27,473 nt of DNA from a bacterium (GCA_046757025.1 JBHHXN010000059.1:1-27473), one strand, 5' to 3'; positions 21,838 through 27,473 are shown, counted from the first letter of the stretch. The notes: generated by a model from the sequence alone, not told the origin. Numbers and translations: made by a program.

Positions 21838-22833
21838 ATGATAATCGAAGCAAGAGCGTATGCCCGCGCAGGTTTTTTGGGCAATCCTTCCGACGGTTAT
21901 TTTGGTAAAACCATTTCCATCATCGTCAGAAATTTTGGCGCCCACATCTCCCTTTACGAAACGCCTGAGCTCCAAATCGAACCGCAGCAACAGGATTTGA
22001 ATGTTTTCAGAAATATTTACGATCTGGTGGAATCGGTTCATTTAACCGGCTACTACGGCGGCTCGCGGCTCATCAAAGCCGCCATCAAAAAATTCGGTGA
22101 ATATTGCGACGCCAATCAAATCAACTTGAAAAACAAGAATTTCACGGTTCGATATTATTCTTCCATTCCGCGGCAAATCGGCCTGGCCGGCTCCAGCGCC
22201 ATCATCACGGCCACCATGCGCGCGCTGATGCAATTCTATGAAGTCGAAATTCCCCTAGAAATCCTGCCCAACCTCATTCTTTCCGTGGAAAAAGACGAGC
22301 TGGGCATCAACTCCGGATTGCAGGATCGGGTGATTCAAACCTATGAAGGGTGCGTATATATGAATTTCGATCAGGCGATCATGAACGAAAAACAACACGG
22401 TCTGTATGAACGCATCGACCCGGCGCTGCTGCCAAAGCTGTACATCGCTTACAAAACCGAACTGGGAAAAGTCTCCGGGGCTGCGCTGAGCGGCATCCGC
22501 TCGAAATATGAAAAAGGAGAATCCGCAGTGTTGGCCAACTTGAGTAAAATCGCTGAGTTGGCTGAAAAGGGCAGGGACTTTCTACTCAAAAAACAAACTT
22601 CAAAACTGCCGGCGCTGATGAATGAAAATTTCGACTTGCGCCAGAAAATCATGTTCATCAGTGCCAACAATTTGGAGATGGTGGAAACGGCGCGCCGTTG
22701 CGGCGCTTCCGCCAAATTTGCCGGCTCCGGCGGTTCCATCATCGGTATCTACAAAGACGACGAAATGTTGACCCGGCTGCACGTGGAATTGAGAAAAATC
22801 AATGCCAGAGTCATCAAACCGTACATCGCTTAA
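21838..22833 (+). CDS. GHMP kinase resembling eukaryotic glucuronokinase
   Basis: ARAGFLGNPSDGYFGKTIS, GYYGG.RL, IPRQIGLAGSSAI, ELGI.SGLQDRV.Q.Y.G, NFDLR and KFAGSGG are the blocks I recognise from plant glucuronokinase. Confidence 0.85.
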   Translation: MIIEARAYARAGFLGNPSDGYFGKTISIIVRNFGAHISLYETPELQIEPQQQDLNVFRNIYDLVESVHLTGYYGGSRLIKAAIKKFGEYCDANQINLKNKNFTVRYYSSIPRQIGLAGSSAIITATMRALMQFYEVEIPLEILPNLILSVEKDELGINSGLQDRVIQTYEGCVYMNFDQAIMNEKQHGLYERIDPALLPKLYIAYKTELGKVSGAALSGIRSKYEKGESAVLANLSKIAELAEKGRDFLLKKQTSKLPALMNENFDLRQKIMFISANNLEMVETARRCGASAKFAGSGGSIIGIYKDDEMLTRLHVELRKINARVIKPYIA

Positions 22834-22888
22834 TTTGCATTTTTCGAATCAGTTTTATCATTGCATCTAAAAAAAGGACCGGAATTTC

Positions 22889-23746
22889 ATGATAAAAAAA
22901 GCGGTTATTCCAGCAGCGGGACTGGGTACGCGTTTTTTACCAGCCACCAAAGCGCAGCCCAAAGAAATGCTTCCCATCATCGACACTCCCACGATTCAAT
23001 ACGTGGTTCAGGAAGCCGTGGATTCCGGCATCGACGACATTCTGGTGATCTCGGGAAAAGGTAAGCGCGCCATTGAAGATCATTTCGACCGCAACCTGGA
23101 ATTAGAGAAGCACCTGGAAGAAAAAGAGGAACAAGTGATGGCCAACGAACTTCGCCGCATTGCGGATATGGCCAACATCCATTTCATTCGGCAAAAAGAA
23201 TTTAATGGATTGGGCGACGCTATTTATTACGCACGATTACACACGGCAAACGAACCGTTTGCGGTGCTGCTCGGAGACACCATCATCGATTCCGCCATTC
23301 CGGTCACTCAACAGCTCATCGATCACTACGAACAGTACCGAAACACCATCATCGGTGTGGAGCAGGTGCCGAAAGAGATCGTTTCGCGCTACGGCATCGT
23401 CGGGGGGCACCAGATCAGCGATCGCATTAATGAAGTCACGGAGTTGATCGAAAAACCCGCTATAAAAGAAAGCCCGTCCGACCTGGCCATCGCAGGGCGA
23501 TACATTTTGACGCCGGAAATTTTTAAAGCACTCGAACAAACCGCAAAAGACGCGAATGATGAACTCCAACTAACCGACGCCATGCGCATTTTGCTGAAGC
23601 GCGAAAAAATCATATCGTACACCATCGAAGGCAAAAGATACGACATCGGCAACAAACTGGACTATTTAAAAACCACGGTGGAATTTGCTTTGCGGCGCAA
23701 AGAGTTCGCCAAACCGTTTCGGCAATTTTTAAAAGAAATCTTATAA
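22889..23746 (+). CDS. galU: UTP--sugar-1-phosphate uridylyltransferase (GalU family)
   Basis: KAVIPAAGLGTRFLPATKAQPKEMLP, GKGKRAIEDHFD, GLGDAI, EKP, AIAGRY and ELQLTDA motifs. Confidence 0.9.
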   Translation: MIKKAVIPAAGLGTRFLPATKAQPKEMLPIIDTPTIQYVVQEAVDSGIDDILVISGKGKRAIEDHFDRNLELEKHLEEKEEQVMANELRRIADMANIHFIRQKEFNGLGDAIYYARLHTANEPFAVLLGDTIIDSAIPVTQQLIDHYEQYRNTIIGVEQVPKEIVSRYGIVGGHQISDRINEVTELIEKPAIKESPSDLAIAGRYILTPEIFKALEQTAKDANDELQLTDAMRILLKREKIISYTIEGKRYDIGNKLDYLKTTVEFALRRKEFAKPFRQFLKEIL

Positions 23747-23798
23747 ATGGTTCTACAAATAAATCCTTGGTCGATTTAAAATAAAACAAAAGAAAGAA

Positions 23799-25367
23799 AT
23801 GACGAAAGATCAAATTTTGAAAGCGCTCACTAAAAGTTATAAAAGCAATCAAATCGTGCCGTTGGTCCTTTCCCCGAATTTCCAGTTTGAATTGTATCCT
23901 AAATCCATCAATCGGCTGCAGGATGCATTTGTTTTTCTGGCTCGCCATGAGAACGGCAAATTCCTGTACATTTATGCAGAGGACAAAGCCAATTTAATTT
24001 TGAGCCGATTTCAAGGAGAATTTGCGCCCCTCGATTCTGAACGATCGGGATGGCTAAAGCGGTGTCCCATGACGCATGACAACGCCGAACAGGTGCGCGC
24101 TCAATTTGCTTTTGCCCGGCCGGTCTTGATCGGTCTTGAAAATTCATTCGGTATGGGCGATCGATTGGGAATCGCCAATCCGGCGCATTTGCGTGCGATC
24201 ATGGCCACCGACATGAAGCCGATTCTGGCACAGCAGTCCATTCGCGAGCTGCAGCGCACGCAGAGAAAACCCGAACAGGTCATGGATGCCGCCACCTGGG
24301 CGGTGTTGCAGGAGGGCTACAAATCGGGATTTGGCGCCGATGCCGATCATTTAAAAACCACCGACAACATCGATCTCATGGCAGCCGCCGGTTTCACCAT
24401 GTTCACGTTCGATCCCGGCGACCACGTTGTAAACGAAGCCGACACACTTACGTTCGAGCAACTAAAAGCACAAATTAACAACCTGCCCTGGGAGTTGTTA
24501 AACGACTCTCCGGAAAACTTTATTCGGCGATACGAAAATCAGCAGTTTAAAATCGGCGCTGATTTTAATTTGAAGCCCAATGAAGAACAAGTATATCGCG
24601 CCCTGGTAAAATACGGCGGCGTCATTGCACACACGAATAAATTATTTCAATATCTGAAAGAACGCTATCCGGCGCATCCGGCCGAGCTGGAACTGTCCGT
24701 CGATGAAACCGATTCGGTCACATCGCCGTTTGAGCATTTTCTGATCGCCAGCGAGCTCAGGCGACTGGAAATCCCGCTCGTGAGTTTGGCGCCAAGATTT
24801 GTGGGCGATTTTGAGAAGGGCATCGATTACAAAGGTAATTTGTCGGAGTTTCGTTCAGAATACCTAAAGCATTTGATGATAGCCGAAAAAATGGGCCCGT
24901 ACAAAATCAGCATCCATTCGGGCAGCGACAAGTTCCGCGTGTACGAAGTCATTGGCGAATTAGAGCAAGGAAGGGTGCACGTGAAAACCGCTGGCACCAG
25001 TTACCTGGAAGCCCTGCACACCGTCGCCGCGGTGCAGCCCAATCTGTTTAGGGAAATCCTCGATTTTTCCCGAGAACACTTTGAGTCGGAAAAAGCCAGC
25101 TACCACATTTCAGCCAGCCTGGACAAGGTACTGCCGGCTAATCAGTACACGGACGTCCAGCTACTGAAACTATTTGAACAGGAAGATGCGCGTCAGGTGC
25201 TGCACGTGACATTCGGCAAAGTTTTAACTTCTCAAAACGACCGCCGAGAGTATCTTTTCCGGCAGCGCATCCTGTCCTGTTTAAATGCTCATGAAGAAAC
25301 CCATTATCGTTTTTTGATCAGACATTTTGAGCGGCATTTATTACCATTTAAGAAAAGGAATTCCTGA
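23799..25367 (+). CDS. uxaE: Tagaturonate/fructuronate epimerase
   Basis: GMGDRLG, AQQSIREL.RT.R, GADADHLK, ELSVDET, SLAPRF.G.FEKGIDY, HSGSDKF and HVKTAGTSYLEAL motifs. Confidence 0.9.
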   Translation: MTKDQILKALTKSYKSNQIVPLVLSPNFQFELYPKSINRLQDAFVFLARHENGKFLYIYAEDKANLILSRFQGEFAPLDSERSGWLKRCPMTHDNAEQVRAQFAFARPVLIGLENSFGMGDRLGIANPAHLRAIMATDMKPILAQQSIRELQRTQRKPEQVMDAATWAVLQEGYKSGFGADADHLKTTDNIDLMAAAGFTMFTFDPGDHVVNEADTLTFEQLKAQINNLPWELLNDSPENFIRRYENQQFKIGADFNLKPNEEQVYRALVKYGGVIAHTNKLFQYLKERYPAHPAELELSVDETDSVTSPFEHFLIASELRRLEIPLVSLAPRFVGDFEKGIDYKGNLSEFRSEYLKHLMIAEKMGPYKISIHSGSDKFRVYEVIGELEQGRVHVKTAGTSYLEALHTVAAVQPNLFREILDFSREHFESEKASYHISASLDKVLPANQYTDVQLLKLFEQEDARQVLHVTFGKVLTSQNDRREYLFRQRILSCLNAHEETHYRFLIRHFERHLLPFKKRNS

Positions 25368-25368
25368 A

Positions 25369-26793
25369 ATGTCCAACTCACAAAAATTAATATTAGATGA
25401 AAACCGTTTTTTTGATCCCGACCCTGCTATTCGAAAAATCGCCCGCGAACTGTACGAAGAAGTAAAAGCCCTGCCCATCGTGAGTCCGCATGGCCATGTT
25501 GAGCCGGCGCTTTTTAGCGAAAACAAACCGTTTCCCAACCCAACCGAGCTCATCATCATTCCCGACCATTATGTCTTTCGCATGCTGTACTCCCAGGGCA
25601 TTCCGCTGGAAGAGCTAGGAATACCCACCCGAGATGGCTCAGTGGTCGAAACCGATCATCGAAAAATATGGCAAATATTTGGCGAAAATTTTCATCTGTT
25701 TGCCGGCACACCAACCGGAGTCTGGCTAAACCACGAATTCTCCGTAGTGTTTGGCATCGAGGATAAATTGAACGAACACACGACTTTGAAAATCTATGAC
25801 CAAATTCAAGAGAAGCTGCAATCACCTGAATTTCTACCCCGATCCCTGTTCGATCAATTCAACATAGAGGTGCTCACCACCACTGACAGCGCCGAATCGC
25901 CGCTGCAGGAACATCAAAAAATCAAAGACTCGGGATGGGGCGGCAACATCGTGCCCTGTTTTCGCCCGGACGGGGTTACGGATTTGAAGGGGCCTGGCTG
26001 GAAAGAAAACATCGTGGCTTTGAGTGAGGTCTGCGGTATGGAAATCAGCTCGTACCGCGATTTCATCTCCGCACTGGAAAGTCGGCGGGAGTTTTTCAAA
26101 TCAATGGGCGCGGTTTCCACCGACCACGGCGTGTACAGTCCGTACACGCACCAGTTGACGCCAAATGAAGCCGAAACCTTATTTGCAAAAGCGCTCAAAG
26201 GACAGGCAACGGATGCAGACGCCGCGGCATTTACCGCACATATATTGATGGAAATGGCCCGAATGAGCCTCGAAGACGGTTTGGTAATGCAGATTCACCC
26301 GGGGTCGTTTCGCAATCACAATCAGCTTTTGTTTGAGAAATTTGGTTATGACAAAGGCGCGGACATCCCCGTGCAAACAGAATATACCCGCAATTTGCGC
26401 GAGCTGTTAAATCAATACGGCAACGACGCCCGCTTCAAACTCATTTTGTTCACCTTAGATGAAACCACCTATTCAAGGGAATTGGCACCGCTGGCCGGGC
26501 ACTATCCAGCCGTCAAATTGGGACCGCCGTGGTGGTTCCACGACAGCATCGAAGGCATGACGCGTTTCCGCCAGCAGGTGATGGAAACCGCCGGCATTTA
26601 CAATACCGTGGGATTTAACGACGACACCCGCGCCTTCCCTTCCATTCCGGCCCGACACGATCTCGCCCGCCGAATGGATGCCAACTATCTGGCGTCGCTG
26701 GTTGCCCGACACATCATCGATCCATCGGATGCTCGCACCATGATCAAAGCGCTGGTTTATAATCTGGTGAAGGCGGCGTATGGGTTAGAATGA
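25369..26793 (+). CDS. uxaC: Uronate (glucuronate/galacturonate) isomerase
   Basis: PIVSPHGH, PDHYVFRMLYSQG, FRPD, TDHG, MQIHPG, WWFHDS and FNDDTRAF.SIPARHD motifs. Start at ATG 25369, just after the uxaE stop. Confidence 0.95.
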   Translation: MSNSQKLILDENRFFDPDPAIRKIARELYEEVKALPIVSPHGHVEPALFSENKPFPNPTELIIIPDHYVFRMLYSQGIPLEELGIPTRDGSVVETDHRKIWQIFGENFHLFAGTPTGVWLNHEFSVVFGIEDKLNEHTTLKIYDQIQEKLQSPEFLPRSLFDQFNIEVLTTTDSAESPLQEHQKIKDSGWGGNIVPCFRPDGVTDLKGPGWKENIVALSEVCGMEISSYRDFISALESRREFFKSMGAVSTDHGVYSPYTHQLTPNEAETLFAKALKGQATDADAAAFTAHILMEMARMSLEDGLVMQIHPGSFRNHNQLLFEKFGYDKGADIPVQTEYTRNLRELLNQYGNDARFKLILFTLDETTYSRELAPLAGHYPAVKLGPPWWFHDSIEGMTRFRQQVMETAGIYNTVGFNDDTRAFPSIPARHDLARRMDANYLASLVARHIIDPSDARTMIKALVYNLVKAAYGLE

Positions 26794-26866
26794 TTTTCAT
26801 ACGTTGATAAACTAAAAGGTGGGCTAACTAAAAAAGCCTAAAAGGATGAGTTGAGCATAATGACGT

Positions 26867-26922
26867 TCCTCGGGTAGGACTCGAACCTACATCCCGAAGT
26901 CTCGGGATAACTGCCAACCGCT
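26867..26922 (-). pseudogene. Partial tRNA-Asn copy with hairpin substitution (copy A)
   Basis: 26867-26891 is identical to the tRNA 3' part (25 nt); then tcccga-agtc-tcggga (26892-26907); then taactgccaaccgct, 13/15 identical to the tRNA. Confidence 0.85.
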
Positions 26923-27178
26923 AATGACTGGGCGGAGATGCTATTAATTCTTCAAGAAAAACCCGACTCTTTTGCTTCTTTATAAATCGCTCTCTTTTCA
27001 AGGCTTCGCTTCGGCTGCTAAATTCCTCGACAAAAACCAAGCGCCACGGAATCCCCCGCTTGCTCCAACCACCTTTACCGGAATTGTGATAAAATAATCT
27101 TATCTCGGGTGCATGGCTCACCCCAACATAATATCTATCCAATTTCTCCGAATGCAATATGTAAACAAAATGGTGCAT
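26921..27178 (-). CDS. Small standalone GIY-YIG nuclease (UPF0213/YhbQ-like)
   Basis: FVYIL...YYVG...RL..HN.G...W.LV..E.F.SRSEALKRER.IKK pattern; 85 aa. Confidence 0.9.
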   Translation of the reverse strand: MHHFVYILHSEKLDRYYVGVSHAPEIRLFYHNSGKGGWSKRGIPWRLVFVEEFSSRSEALKRERFIKKQKSRVFLEELIASPPSH

Positions 27179-27202
27179 AGCAATCGCAGGCCGGTGTAAA
27201 AT

Positions 27203-27231
27203 AAAAAACCGACTTTATCTCCAAAAGTCGG
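27203..27231 (-). terminator. Intrinsic terminator downstream of tRNA-Asn
   Basis: ccgacttt (27209-27216) / aaagtcgg (27224-27231) stem followed by a T6 run on the minus strand. Confidence 0.8.
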
Positions 27232-27240
27232 CTTTATTTG

Positions 27241-27313
27241 CTCCTCGGGTAGGACTCGAACCTACAACCTAGTGGTTAACAGCCACCCGCTCTGCCGATT
27301 GAGCTACCGAGGA
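27241..27313 (-). tRNA. tRNA-Asn(GTT), CCA not encoded
   Basis: Reverse complement TCCTCGGTAGCTCAATCGGCAGAGCGGGTGGCTGTTAACCACTAGGTTGTAGGTTCGAGTCCTACCCGAGGAG folds as a full cloverleaf with anticodon GTT. Confidence 0.97.
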
Positions 27314-27392
27314 ATTTACTGACTTATTACAAAAGCAGGACGTATTTTATTCTTACGTAAGGGTTAATTCTTGCCTTACACAACTCAAATGA

Positions 27393-27471
27393 ACCCTCAG
27401 ATGCGACTCGAACCTACATCCCGATTCCTCGGGATAACAGCCACCCGCTCTGCCGATTGAGCTACCGAGGA
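27393..27471 (-). pseudogene. tRNA-Asn-derived copy with hairpin substitution and degenerate 3' end (copy C)
   Basis: 27435-27471 is identical to tRNA nt 1-37; tcccga-ttcc-tcggga at 27419-27434; 27405-27418 is identical to the T-arm region; the last 12 nt match only 6/12. Confidence 0.85.
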
Positions 27472-27473
27472 AT

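Follow-up and report, generated by a model that had tools for sequence, protein, structure and literature searches.

Introduction

SsnA of Neisseria meningitidis (cd10448) is a nuclease that cuts single-stranded DNA a few nucleotides from a flanking hairpin. It needs the sequence of the stem and not of the loop, and it ignores double-stranded DNA and RNA (PMC11893778). In Neisseria, SsnA modulates transformation, and the NTS-ssnA-NTS arrangement was suggested by the authors of that work to be a mobile-element-like unit (PMC11893778). The supplement of the same paper places Ssn as a sister group to sparsely characterised bacterial SLX1-like proteins, and tRNA is not mentioned in its main text (PMC11893778).

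A GIY-YIG enzyme is also known at the tRNA locus of phages T4 and T6. There, cutting by the free-standing homing endonuclease SegB and recombination lead to tandem amplification of the tRNA locus (PMC13096335); the word "hairpin" does not occur in the main text of that paper. For UPF0213/Slx1-like proteins, methyltransferase neighbours are reported, and not tRNA or hairpin flanks, in the passages at hand from PMC1564403.

Here we describe a bacterial locus in which a small GIY-YIG gene lies among hairpin-bearing copies of a tRNA gene. The stretch of DNA that was analysed, 27,473 nt long and called the window below, is contig C59 of a 374-contig, 5.96-Mb assembly with a completeness of 94.8%. 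We found no account of a tRNA-linked nuclease-hairpin arrangement in the literature covered, which consisted mostly of open-licence texts and part of the supplements. Both GIY and TCCCG are absent from PMC3733652, and GIY is absent from main-text passages of PMC5737381.

Organization of the locus

Three co-oriented tRNA-Asn-derived units lie on the minus strand of the window. They had been noticed in an earlier sequence-only reading of this DNA and were confirmed by sequence and alignment. On the minus strand the order is an upstream hairpin copy (27471-27393), a 79-nt spacer, the tRNA-Asn(GTT) gene (27313-27240), a terminator-like hairpin, an 85-aa ORF (27178-26921), a second hairpin copy (26922-26867) and the end of uxaC. 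The intact tRNA-Asn(GTT) at 27240-27313 was identified by ARAGORN and by Rfam (RF00005, 69.9 bits), and it is the sole tRNA-Asn that ARAGORN calls in the whole assembly, whose completeness is 94.8%. The hairpin between the tRNA and the nuclease gene (27195-27235, minus strand) is similar to an intrinsic terminator as judged by a consensus match. On the overlapping contig C157, the upstream copy is preceded by a promoter-like stretch that resembles the one ahead of the tRNA in cassette-free relatives, the promoter being judged by eye.

In both defective copies, tRNA nt 38-47 are swapped for a TCCCG-N6-CGGGA hairpin. In the intact gene this segment (27267-27276, minus strand; ACCTAGTGGT on the plus strand) is a 3-bp fold-back with a 4-nt loop. 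The alignment confirmed that the same 10 nt are exchanged at identical boundaries for a 16-nt hairpin, TCCCGAAGTCTCGGGA at 26892-26907 in the downstream copy and TCCCGATTCCTCGGGA at 27419-27434, with a 6-bp stem and a 4-nt loop, in the upstream copy. The opposite-side decay of the copies also held. The upstream copy (27393-27471) retains the entire 5' side, that is tRNA nt 1-37 at 27435-27471 of the minus strand, as seen in the sequence alignment. Its 3' side (27393-27418, minus strand) consists of a 14-nt exact arm at 27405-27418 and then a decayed acceptor strand. In the downstream copy (26867-26922), the 3' side, nt 48-72 at 26867-26891 of the minus strand, aligns with the intact gene without a difference, and of the 5' side about 15 nt are left. 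This short 5' arm (26908-26922, minus strand) corresponds to tRNA nt 23-37 with 2 mismatches and abuts the stop codon of the nuclease gene.

The GIY-YIG gene is the only ORF of at least 60 aa between the repeats, and an integrase or recombinase gene is absent there. Integrase islands at tRNA 3' ends have an intact tRNA on one side and a duplicated 3' part on the other. The cassette is similar to such islands in its intact tRNA, its duplicated 3' part and the empty sites in relatives. However, it has no integrase and a cargo of only about 300 nt, its duplicate includes some of the 5' half together with a hairpin, and the tRNA is preceded by mirror copies. The stretch 21838-26793 of the window is an ordinary sugar-metabolism cluster with genes for a GHMP kinase, a nucleotidyltransferase, uxaE and uxaC, and with lnt on the opposite strand.

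Properties of the GIY-YIG protein

The gene at 26921-27178 (minus strand) encodes a stand-alone minimal GIY-YIG domain of 85 aa without a C-terminal Asn, which we assigned to the Slx1/UPF0213-like type from Pfam, structure matches and alignment. Pfam gives one domain, GIY-YIG (PF01541, E 2.1e-15), and this single-domain protein contains no extra DNA-binding domain; no NCBIfam model matches it. The residues Y6, Y17, G19, R27, H31 and E63 are all intact. Across 65 aligned homologues Y6 is conserved in at least 90%, and the other five residues are invariant. The structure model is confident (pLDDT 94.7), and ranks 1-13 of the Foldseek search with this model are UPF0213, Slx1 and HIGLE. The best phmmer matches are PDB 1zg2 and 1ywl (E 3.5e-06 and 5.5e-06). 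The minimal domain without a C-terminal Asn and the best sequence and fold matches are thus the likeness to UPF0213 and prokaryotic Slx1-like proteins. Over the first 80 codons, dN/dS was 0.03-0.42 in 11 of 14 hand-picked sister pairs and saturated in the other 3. This indicates that the nuclease gene is under purifying selection. At many Bacteroidota loci the ORF runs through the tRNA D-arm and the hairpin and ends with a stop in the anticodon loop. Many homologue matches from a profile search of one phylum contain internal stops.

SegB-type homing endonucleases have one or more separate DNA-binding domains besides the nuclease domain, and such a domain is missing in the one-domain 85-aa cassette protein. 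The position of a GIY-YIG gene next to tRNA genes and the gene-free alleles among relatives are reminiscent of SegB. However, SegB is a phage enzyme making double-strand breaks, whereas the cassette gene is chromosomal, encodes 85 aa and has no phage match, and the amplified units here exclude the intact anticodon segment.

In many respects the cassette is similar to Ssn. Both have a single-domain GIY-YIG gene of about 90 aa with a hairpin on both sides, a conserved stem and a free loop, and in both the hairpin is scattered through the genome as well (PMC11893778). The catalytic Tyr, Tyr and Glu stand at positions 6, 17 and 63 here and at 6, 17 and 64 in SsnA, which lies outside our alignment. 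The differences concern the repeat, the protein and the surroundings. The SRM pattern is absent in 26800-27473, and it gave 1 match in 83 loci and 0 matches overlapping a hairpin; the pattern does match at L099 and L104. In a tree of 97 proteins, those flanked by SRM-type repeats form a separate branch (99/91), and the window protein groups apart from the SRM-type proteins of related genomes and is without their NPxW-type tail. Forcing it together with the SRM-type proteins was rejected at a p-AU of 0.036, with about 100 columns and with the group named after the first tree. Finally, the hairpin is here embedded in tRNA-gene copies and replaces a native fold-back. Because the SRM pattern fails and the protein is of the Slx1-like type, we did not file the cassette as Ssn. 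The best reading is that it may work like Ssn/NTS and would extend the Ssn idea to a sister lineage on essential tRNA genes. The sequence-only reading, to which no characterised system of this form was known, missed Ssn/NTS: this is a close functional analogue, though the tRNA arrangement is not covered in the main text of PMC11893778.

We also came across other small GIY-YIG genes. A second type, with a 16-bp inverted repeat overlapping its stop codon, is located at G000:C95:17300-17620 (L256, L300), where it interrupts an apparent GxxExxY-type gene (labelled by eye); its relatives L085 and L089 lie inside integron-integrase-like sequence with similar inverted repeats. Eight Ssn-like GIY-YIG genes or remnants (L299, L301-L307) on G000:C173, C28, C129, C109, C337, C5 and C259 form a MITE-like family. 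Seven of them have internal stops, and their GTCA-type inverted repeats are missed by the SRM pattern. L126, L129 and L134 (G044) are Ssn-like GIY-YIG tandem arrays with a 423-nt period and inverted repeats of their own, away from tRNAs.

Distribution among bacteria

A protein-first scan gave 152 relatives, and the best 80 of these yielded the 79 loci that were kept; nearly all share the search peptide motif, and the relatives in the locus counts are not independent. These 79 loci belong mostly to Bacteroidota, plus Balneolota, Calditrichota, Chlorobiota and others. Among these loci from the best 80 of 152 relatives, a tRNA was called upstream in 61, mostly 31-66 nt off; a strict hairpin was found no more than 150 nt downstream in 65, compared with 0 of 71 control windows; and 2-4 tandem gene copies were present in 25. 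The upstream tRNA calls were 51 Asn, 5 Gly, 4 Val and 1 false Gln on a hairpin copy. Upstream arrays have up to 10 units (L072), and many loci are without one. Thus, hairpin replacement is recurrent and is tied to the GIY-YIG clade and to tRNA genes. A one-off duplication with no association elsewhere, which the sequence-only reading had named as the outcome that would speak against it, is countered by these homologous loci.

For 125 of 154 hairpins in 63 loci with an intact tRNA, both flanks map to the locus's own tRNA. The mean flank match was 23.7 nt to the own tRNA and 13.0 nt to other tRNAs; when the own tRNA was set against the best other tRNA, it won, tied and lost in 20, 91 and 14 cases, hence this is a weak test. 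Searching from the DNA side for the window-type junction led to 57 loci; the context was tRNA-like in 48, and 33 had the gene, always on the same strand. An intact tRNA-Asn was present in 31 of the 57, and 19 of these 31 map to a 10-nt replacement. The gene was absent in 24 of the 57 loci, many of them short, and in 8 of the 23 loci of at least 1400 nt. Orphan hairpin copies are therefore common.

A profile search matched 140 of 301 sampled genomes of one phylum (E<=1e-17). Among the 29 top new loci, the gene lies after a tRNA in 25 (Gly 12, Asp 4, Asn 3, Ala 3, Val 2, Arg 1), the hairpin is present in 23, and 4 come from genomes already covered. More distant relatives have other stems and lie at tRNA-Lys, -Ser and -Arg. 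With the queries used, phage, plasmid and viral collections yielded no cassette copy.

Segments replaced by the hairpin

The replaced tRNA segment is 25-34 in 36 loci, 28-34 in 7 and 38-47 in 3, and other sites occur too. Since 25-34 is the commonest site, the 37/38 boundary, to which the sequence-only reading had drawn attention, is not special. A tRNA intron or a 37/38-specific event was rejected, as the replacement site varies by lineage. In contrast, the observation that the native segment is a small palindrome turned out to be general. At 21 of 22 sites the ends of the replaced segment were complementary (null 5.75), and at 16 of 22 they formed two pairs or more (null 1.5); 0 of 5000 simulations reached either count. 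When 5 true tRNA helices and 4 near-duplicates were removed by hand, 12 of 13 and 9 of 13 sites remained (null 3.2 and 0.7; 0 of 20,000 simulations). The overwritten segment differs among lineages, yet its ends are complementary nearly everywhere, and an identical register recurs on differing tRNA sequences. This shows that the hairpin overwrites native mini fold-backs in a hairpin-for-hairpin swap. Extra hairpins accumulate at secondary sites within tRNA copies.

We assessed whether these replacements could be the traces of a homing endonuclease. In this case the enzyme would cut the native mini fold-back, and the hairpin would be a resistant patch or a repair scar; the cut target would be the unmodified tRNA gene or any such fold-back, which is near the idea of an immunity mark. 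We regard this explanation as unlikely, even though the replaced segments are fold-backs far beyond chance, Slx1 is structure-selective and the nearest characterised fold, empty alleles exist, and extra hairpins gather at secondary sites. In homing endonuclease systems the gene-bearing allele has lost or altered the target. Here at least 60 of the 79 loci from the best 80 of 152 relatives still have the unmodified tRNA, at a distance of a few dozen bases from the gene. Because this putative target is retained, the locus would not be immune. The earlier proposal of an immunity mark for the GIY-YIG nuclease is accordingly weak, as the intact tRNA gene persists within the same locus. Besides, a TCCCG stem that is fixed across phyla with a free loop suits a recognition site better, and the protein is without an additional DNA-binding domain. 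We find the reading of the hairpin as a putative recognition mark better than its reading as an immunity mark.

Structure of the hairpin and its spread in the genome

The motif TCCCGA-N3-8-TCGGGA has 67 matches in the genome, one place being counted twice on two overlapping contigs, whereas 120 controls with permuted hexamers gave a median of 2. Of the matches, 43 fall into three other families of short repeats, 3 into tRNA-Asn copies (2 places), and 21 lie elsewhere. A genome scan had been suggested by the sequence-only reading with an enrichment in tRNA-derived sequence in mind. The hairpin is indeed far above the controls, but only 3 of the 67 matches are in tRNA-Asn copies. It stands where sibling repeats of the same genome have CGGAGTCG or CGCAGCG. 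Since many of the siblings are hairpins in decay, the genome-wide count of hairpin-free ones (35/67) was kept out of the statistics, and clear cases alone are given here.

In a set of 79 distinct 16-mers, the variable positions 6 and 11 form a Watson-Crick pair in 77 (AT 42, CG 27, TA 4, GC 4), and 66 different loops are present. The suggested selection on the stem with a variable loop is thus supported by covariation through four pair types: the stem of the hairpin is structurally constrained, and the loop is free.

Several unusual hairpins were observed. At L239 (G003:C216), which ends at the contig end, an upstream tRNA-Asn array has nt 38-47 swapped for a different stem, TCAGGC-N4-GCCTGA. 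A full tRNA-Asn copy at L002:1364-1448 has both ends intact and a hairpin nested in a hairpin, and it still scores as tRNA-Asn in ARAGORN and Rfam. In 6S RNA (G000:C5:74896-75086, L247), a TCCCG hairpin occupies the variable terminal stem, a slot where most of 11 relatives have other hairpins (L286-L297). Two TCCCG hairpins are in frame within one 350-codon ORF (G000:C94:19044 and 19470, L246), which we take to be similar to an IS21-type transposase.

The hairpin copies might also act at the RNA level, co-transcribed with the tRNA as an antitoxin, decoy or guide for the nuclease. Type III toxin-antitoxin loci consist of a ToxN/CptN/TenpN RNase and a pseudoknot RNA repeat array, and the order of promoter, repeat array, tRNA, terminator and nuclease resembles such loci. 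One hairpin lies within the 6S RNA terminal stem, and imperfect stems, read on the sense strand of the tRNA, lean slightly to G-T pairs (8 rows, of which 6 are distinct, versus 3 A-C), which are too few to decide. However, the cassette protein is a GIY-YIG protein, and tRNA is the only Rfam family matched in the window (E<1e-3) and in 20 loci (gathering threshold). The loops are near random, and RNA tetraloops are not enriched in them, with GNRA in 1 of 77 and UNCG in 2 of 77, that is, at chance level. Some loci (L023, L074) have a second hairpin that is reverse-complementary to another, the hairpin also occurs in frame in coding sequence and in unrelated DNA repeats, and the upstream array is missing at many loci. 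SsnA does not bind RNA according to PMC11893778. We therefore rate an RNA-level system as quite improbable.

Filled and empty loci

In a census of one genus, which covered 30 tRNA-Asn loci from 31 genomes, gene and hairpin were both present in 2 loci and both missing in 28; one of the empty loci ends 38 nt past the tRNA. Both filled loci have an ORF that begins a few bases past a terminator resembling the one in the empty relatives. For the window's own family, 13 complete loci were compared, and 3 of them are filled. Another locus lacks the gene but has a hairpin copy upstream, and in a truncated locus the 38-47 site is taken by a different stem. Two rows of the family table marked as a hairpin without the gene (L226, L234) were dropped, being loose-pattern matches about 350 nt from the tRNA. 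In one of the own-family cassettes, the hairpin is placed in the 25-34 register of a tRNA with the family's sequence. When the three cassette proteins of the family were forced into one clade, a group named after the first tree, p-AU was 0.025. Since the proteins are not one clade and the 25-34 register is used, we suggest that the cassettes of this family may have arrived separately.

A neutral accident would mean that a REP-like palindrome struck tandem tRNA duplications and that the nuclease gene is a passenger. The 64 of 67 genome hairpin matches outside tRNA-Asn copies and the existence of orphan copies would fit this explanation. It is largely refuted by the co-occurrence counts, as gene and hairpin are gained or lost together (2 both, 28 neither) and their distance is tight at the 65 of 79 loci from the best 80 of 152 relatives, compared with 0 of 71 controls. 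It is also at odds with the purifying selection acting on the gene and with the recurrence of the same register on different tRNA sequences, and we give it very little probability.

The cassette could instead have been domesticated by the host, in which case it would influence how DNA is taken up or recombined at tRNA genes, for instance by keeping integrating elements out. The 3' ends of tRNA genes are common integration sites, which we counted for this idea. It also agrees with dN/dS below 1 and with the reduced integration of NTS-bearing DNA caused by SsnA (PMC11893778). The presence of the cassette is patchy in genus and family, many homologues have internal stops, and tandem arrays are frequent; these features fit with a selfish element, and domestication seems to us highly unlikely.

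The copies show a polarity. Of 47 upstream copies, 38 extend to the 5' end of the tRNA and none to its 3' end; of 83 downstream copies, 1 extends to the 5' end and 36 to the 3' end, and many of the remaining ones are broken by a second hairpin. The medians of the inner-arm length are 10-19 nt. We also considered that the element carries a whole tRNA and that the host gene is split around the cassette, and this is not favoured. The D-loop allele of the short arm beside the gene is unlike that of the intact tRNA in 10 genomes and like it in 5, while the allele of the upstream copy equals that of the intact tRNA in 3 of 5 genomes, which are small numbers.

Copy number of the units

The contig end overlaps the reverse-complemented start of C157 by 197 nt, and this overlap has the form repeat-unit-repeat. 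Depth was taken from unitigs of four runs (X1-X4) of one study, two of which are possibly the source DNA; unitig depth is a rough guide. For the piece 27284-27464 it was 47, 38, 35 and 31, compared with 11.8, 11.9, 9.2 and 7-9 in the flanks. The 158-nt upstream repeat unit (27277-27434, minus strand), which was delimited by the C157 overlap and unitig depth, is at about 3-4 times the flank depth in all four runs. The 375-nt nuclease unit (26867-27241, minus strand), delimited by unitig depth, is at about twice the flank depth in three of four runs. A 400-nt unitig, 26867-27266, had a depth of 22.8 in X2 and 20.6 in X4 with flanks at 7-12; in X3 the unit was in two pieces with depths of 20.9 and 15.3, and in X1 there was no break. 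The unitig break points match the expectation for a 375-nt loop. The upstream unit is probably present as about 3-4 tandem copies collapsed in the assembly. The nuclease unit is probably tandem in some samples, with about 2 copies (1-3 as the range), so the assembly probably under-counts both flanking units. A junction record for tandem units was not seen among the unitigs of the four runs. The run variants are at 26912, where X1 and X2 (2 of 4 runs) read the tRNA base, and at 27107, where X4 deviates and the X3 unitig is split.

Assembly chimerism of the copies, the other outcome held to be fatal in the sequence-only reading, was rejected. The same arrangement is present in complete chromosomes and isolates (for example, L005-L007 and L074), and the unitigs of the four runs cover the region with no chimera signature, while no single record spans the whole stretch. 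No RNA data set was listed as containing it, a result that carries no information on expression.

Discussion

We have demonstrated the architecture of the locus, its recurrence, filled and empty alleles, tandem arrays and stem covariation. In our opinion, the locus is rather probably a selfish cassette. Its Slx1-like enzyme is predicted to introduce nicks into single-stranded DNA at the hairpin, and the cassette would recombine via tRNA homology. By analogy with SsnA/NTS and from the Slx1-like fold, the hairpin would act as single-stranded DNA and be the site of the enzyme. Nicks would be followed by unequal recombination in the outer arms, causing harmless growth and shrinkage of the upstream and nuclease units. 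SegB is an example of a GIY-YIG enzyme whose cutting, together with recombination, amplifies a tRNA locus (PMC13096335). Crossovers in the inner arms would remove the sole intact anticodon segment, and inner homology would then erode to 10-19 nt and be lost except beside the hairpin. Apparently, the mirror-image decay of the copies arises because such crossovers would delete the intact anticodon segment. Recombination via tRNA-identical arms would amplify the cassette and carry it into empty tRNA genes, and tRNA genes may be used because these homology arms are conserved across species. Exchange at the bases of small fold-backs would write new hairpins, and this would extend in trans to other repeats of the genome. 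To our knowledge, GIY-YIG enzymes do not perform strand transfer, and for this reason the hairpin-writing step is without precedent. This gap, the frequent orphan copies and the lack of a cassette in the phage, plasmid and viral collections with the queries used count against the selfish reading.

The spread of a short hairpin in trans by an enzyme encoded next to it, with hairpins also within genes, is reminiscent of REP/REPIN-RAYT and IS200/IS605. However, the enzymes there are HUH tyrosine transposases, whereas Pfam gives only GIY-YIG here. A far-reaching form of the selfish cassette is therefore possible, although we hold it to be doubtful. In this form, a transposase-free 85-aa Slx1-like nuclease is predicted to be a hairpin writer, which cuts the base of a fold-back in single-stranded DNA and swaps in its own 16-nt hairpin, homing included. 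Each swap would replace 5-17 nt, whether in a tRNA gene, another repeat, 6S RNA or coding sequence, and tRNA homology alone would allow the cassette, about 300 nt long, to home between phyla. If true, mobile DNA would gain a new class, and compact single-stranded DNA nucleases a large family whose members each have their own stem.

The rule of fold-back overwriting points to an exchange reaction on single-stranded DNA without known precedent. The cassette accounts for a class of pseudo-tRNAs and for assembly breaks at tRNA loci. The profile matches 7,144 clusters at 50% identity (E<=1e-10), neighbouring GIY-YIG families included. Thus, the cassette offers a concrete and testable substrate for a very large uncharacterised group of bacterial GIY-YIG proteins, and, if confirmed, this family would add compact hairpin-addressed single-stranded DNA nucleases to the toolbox.
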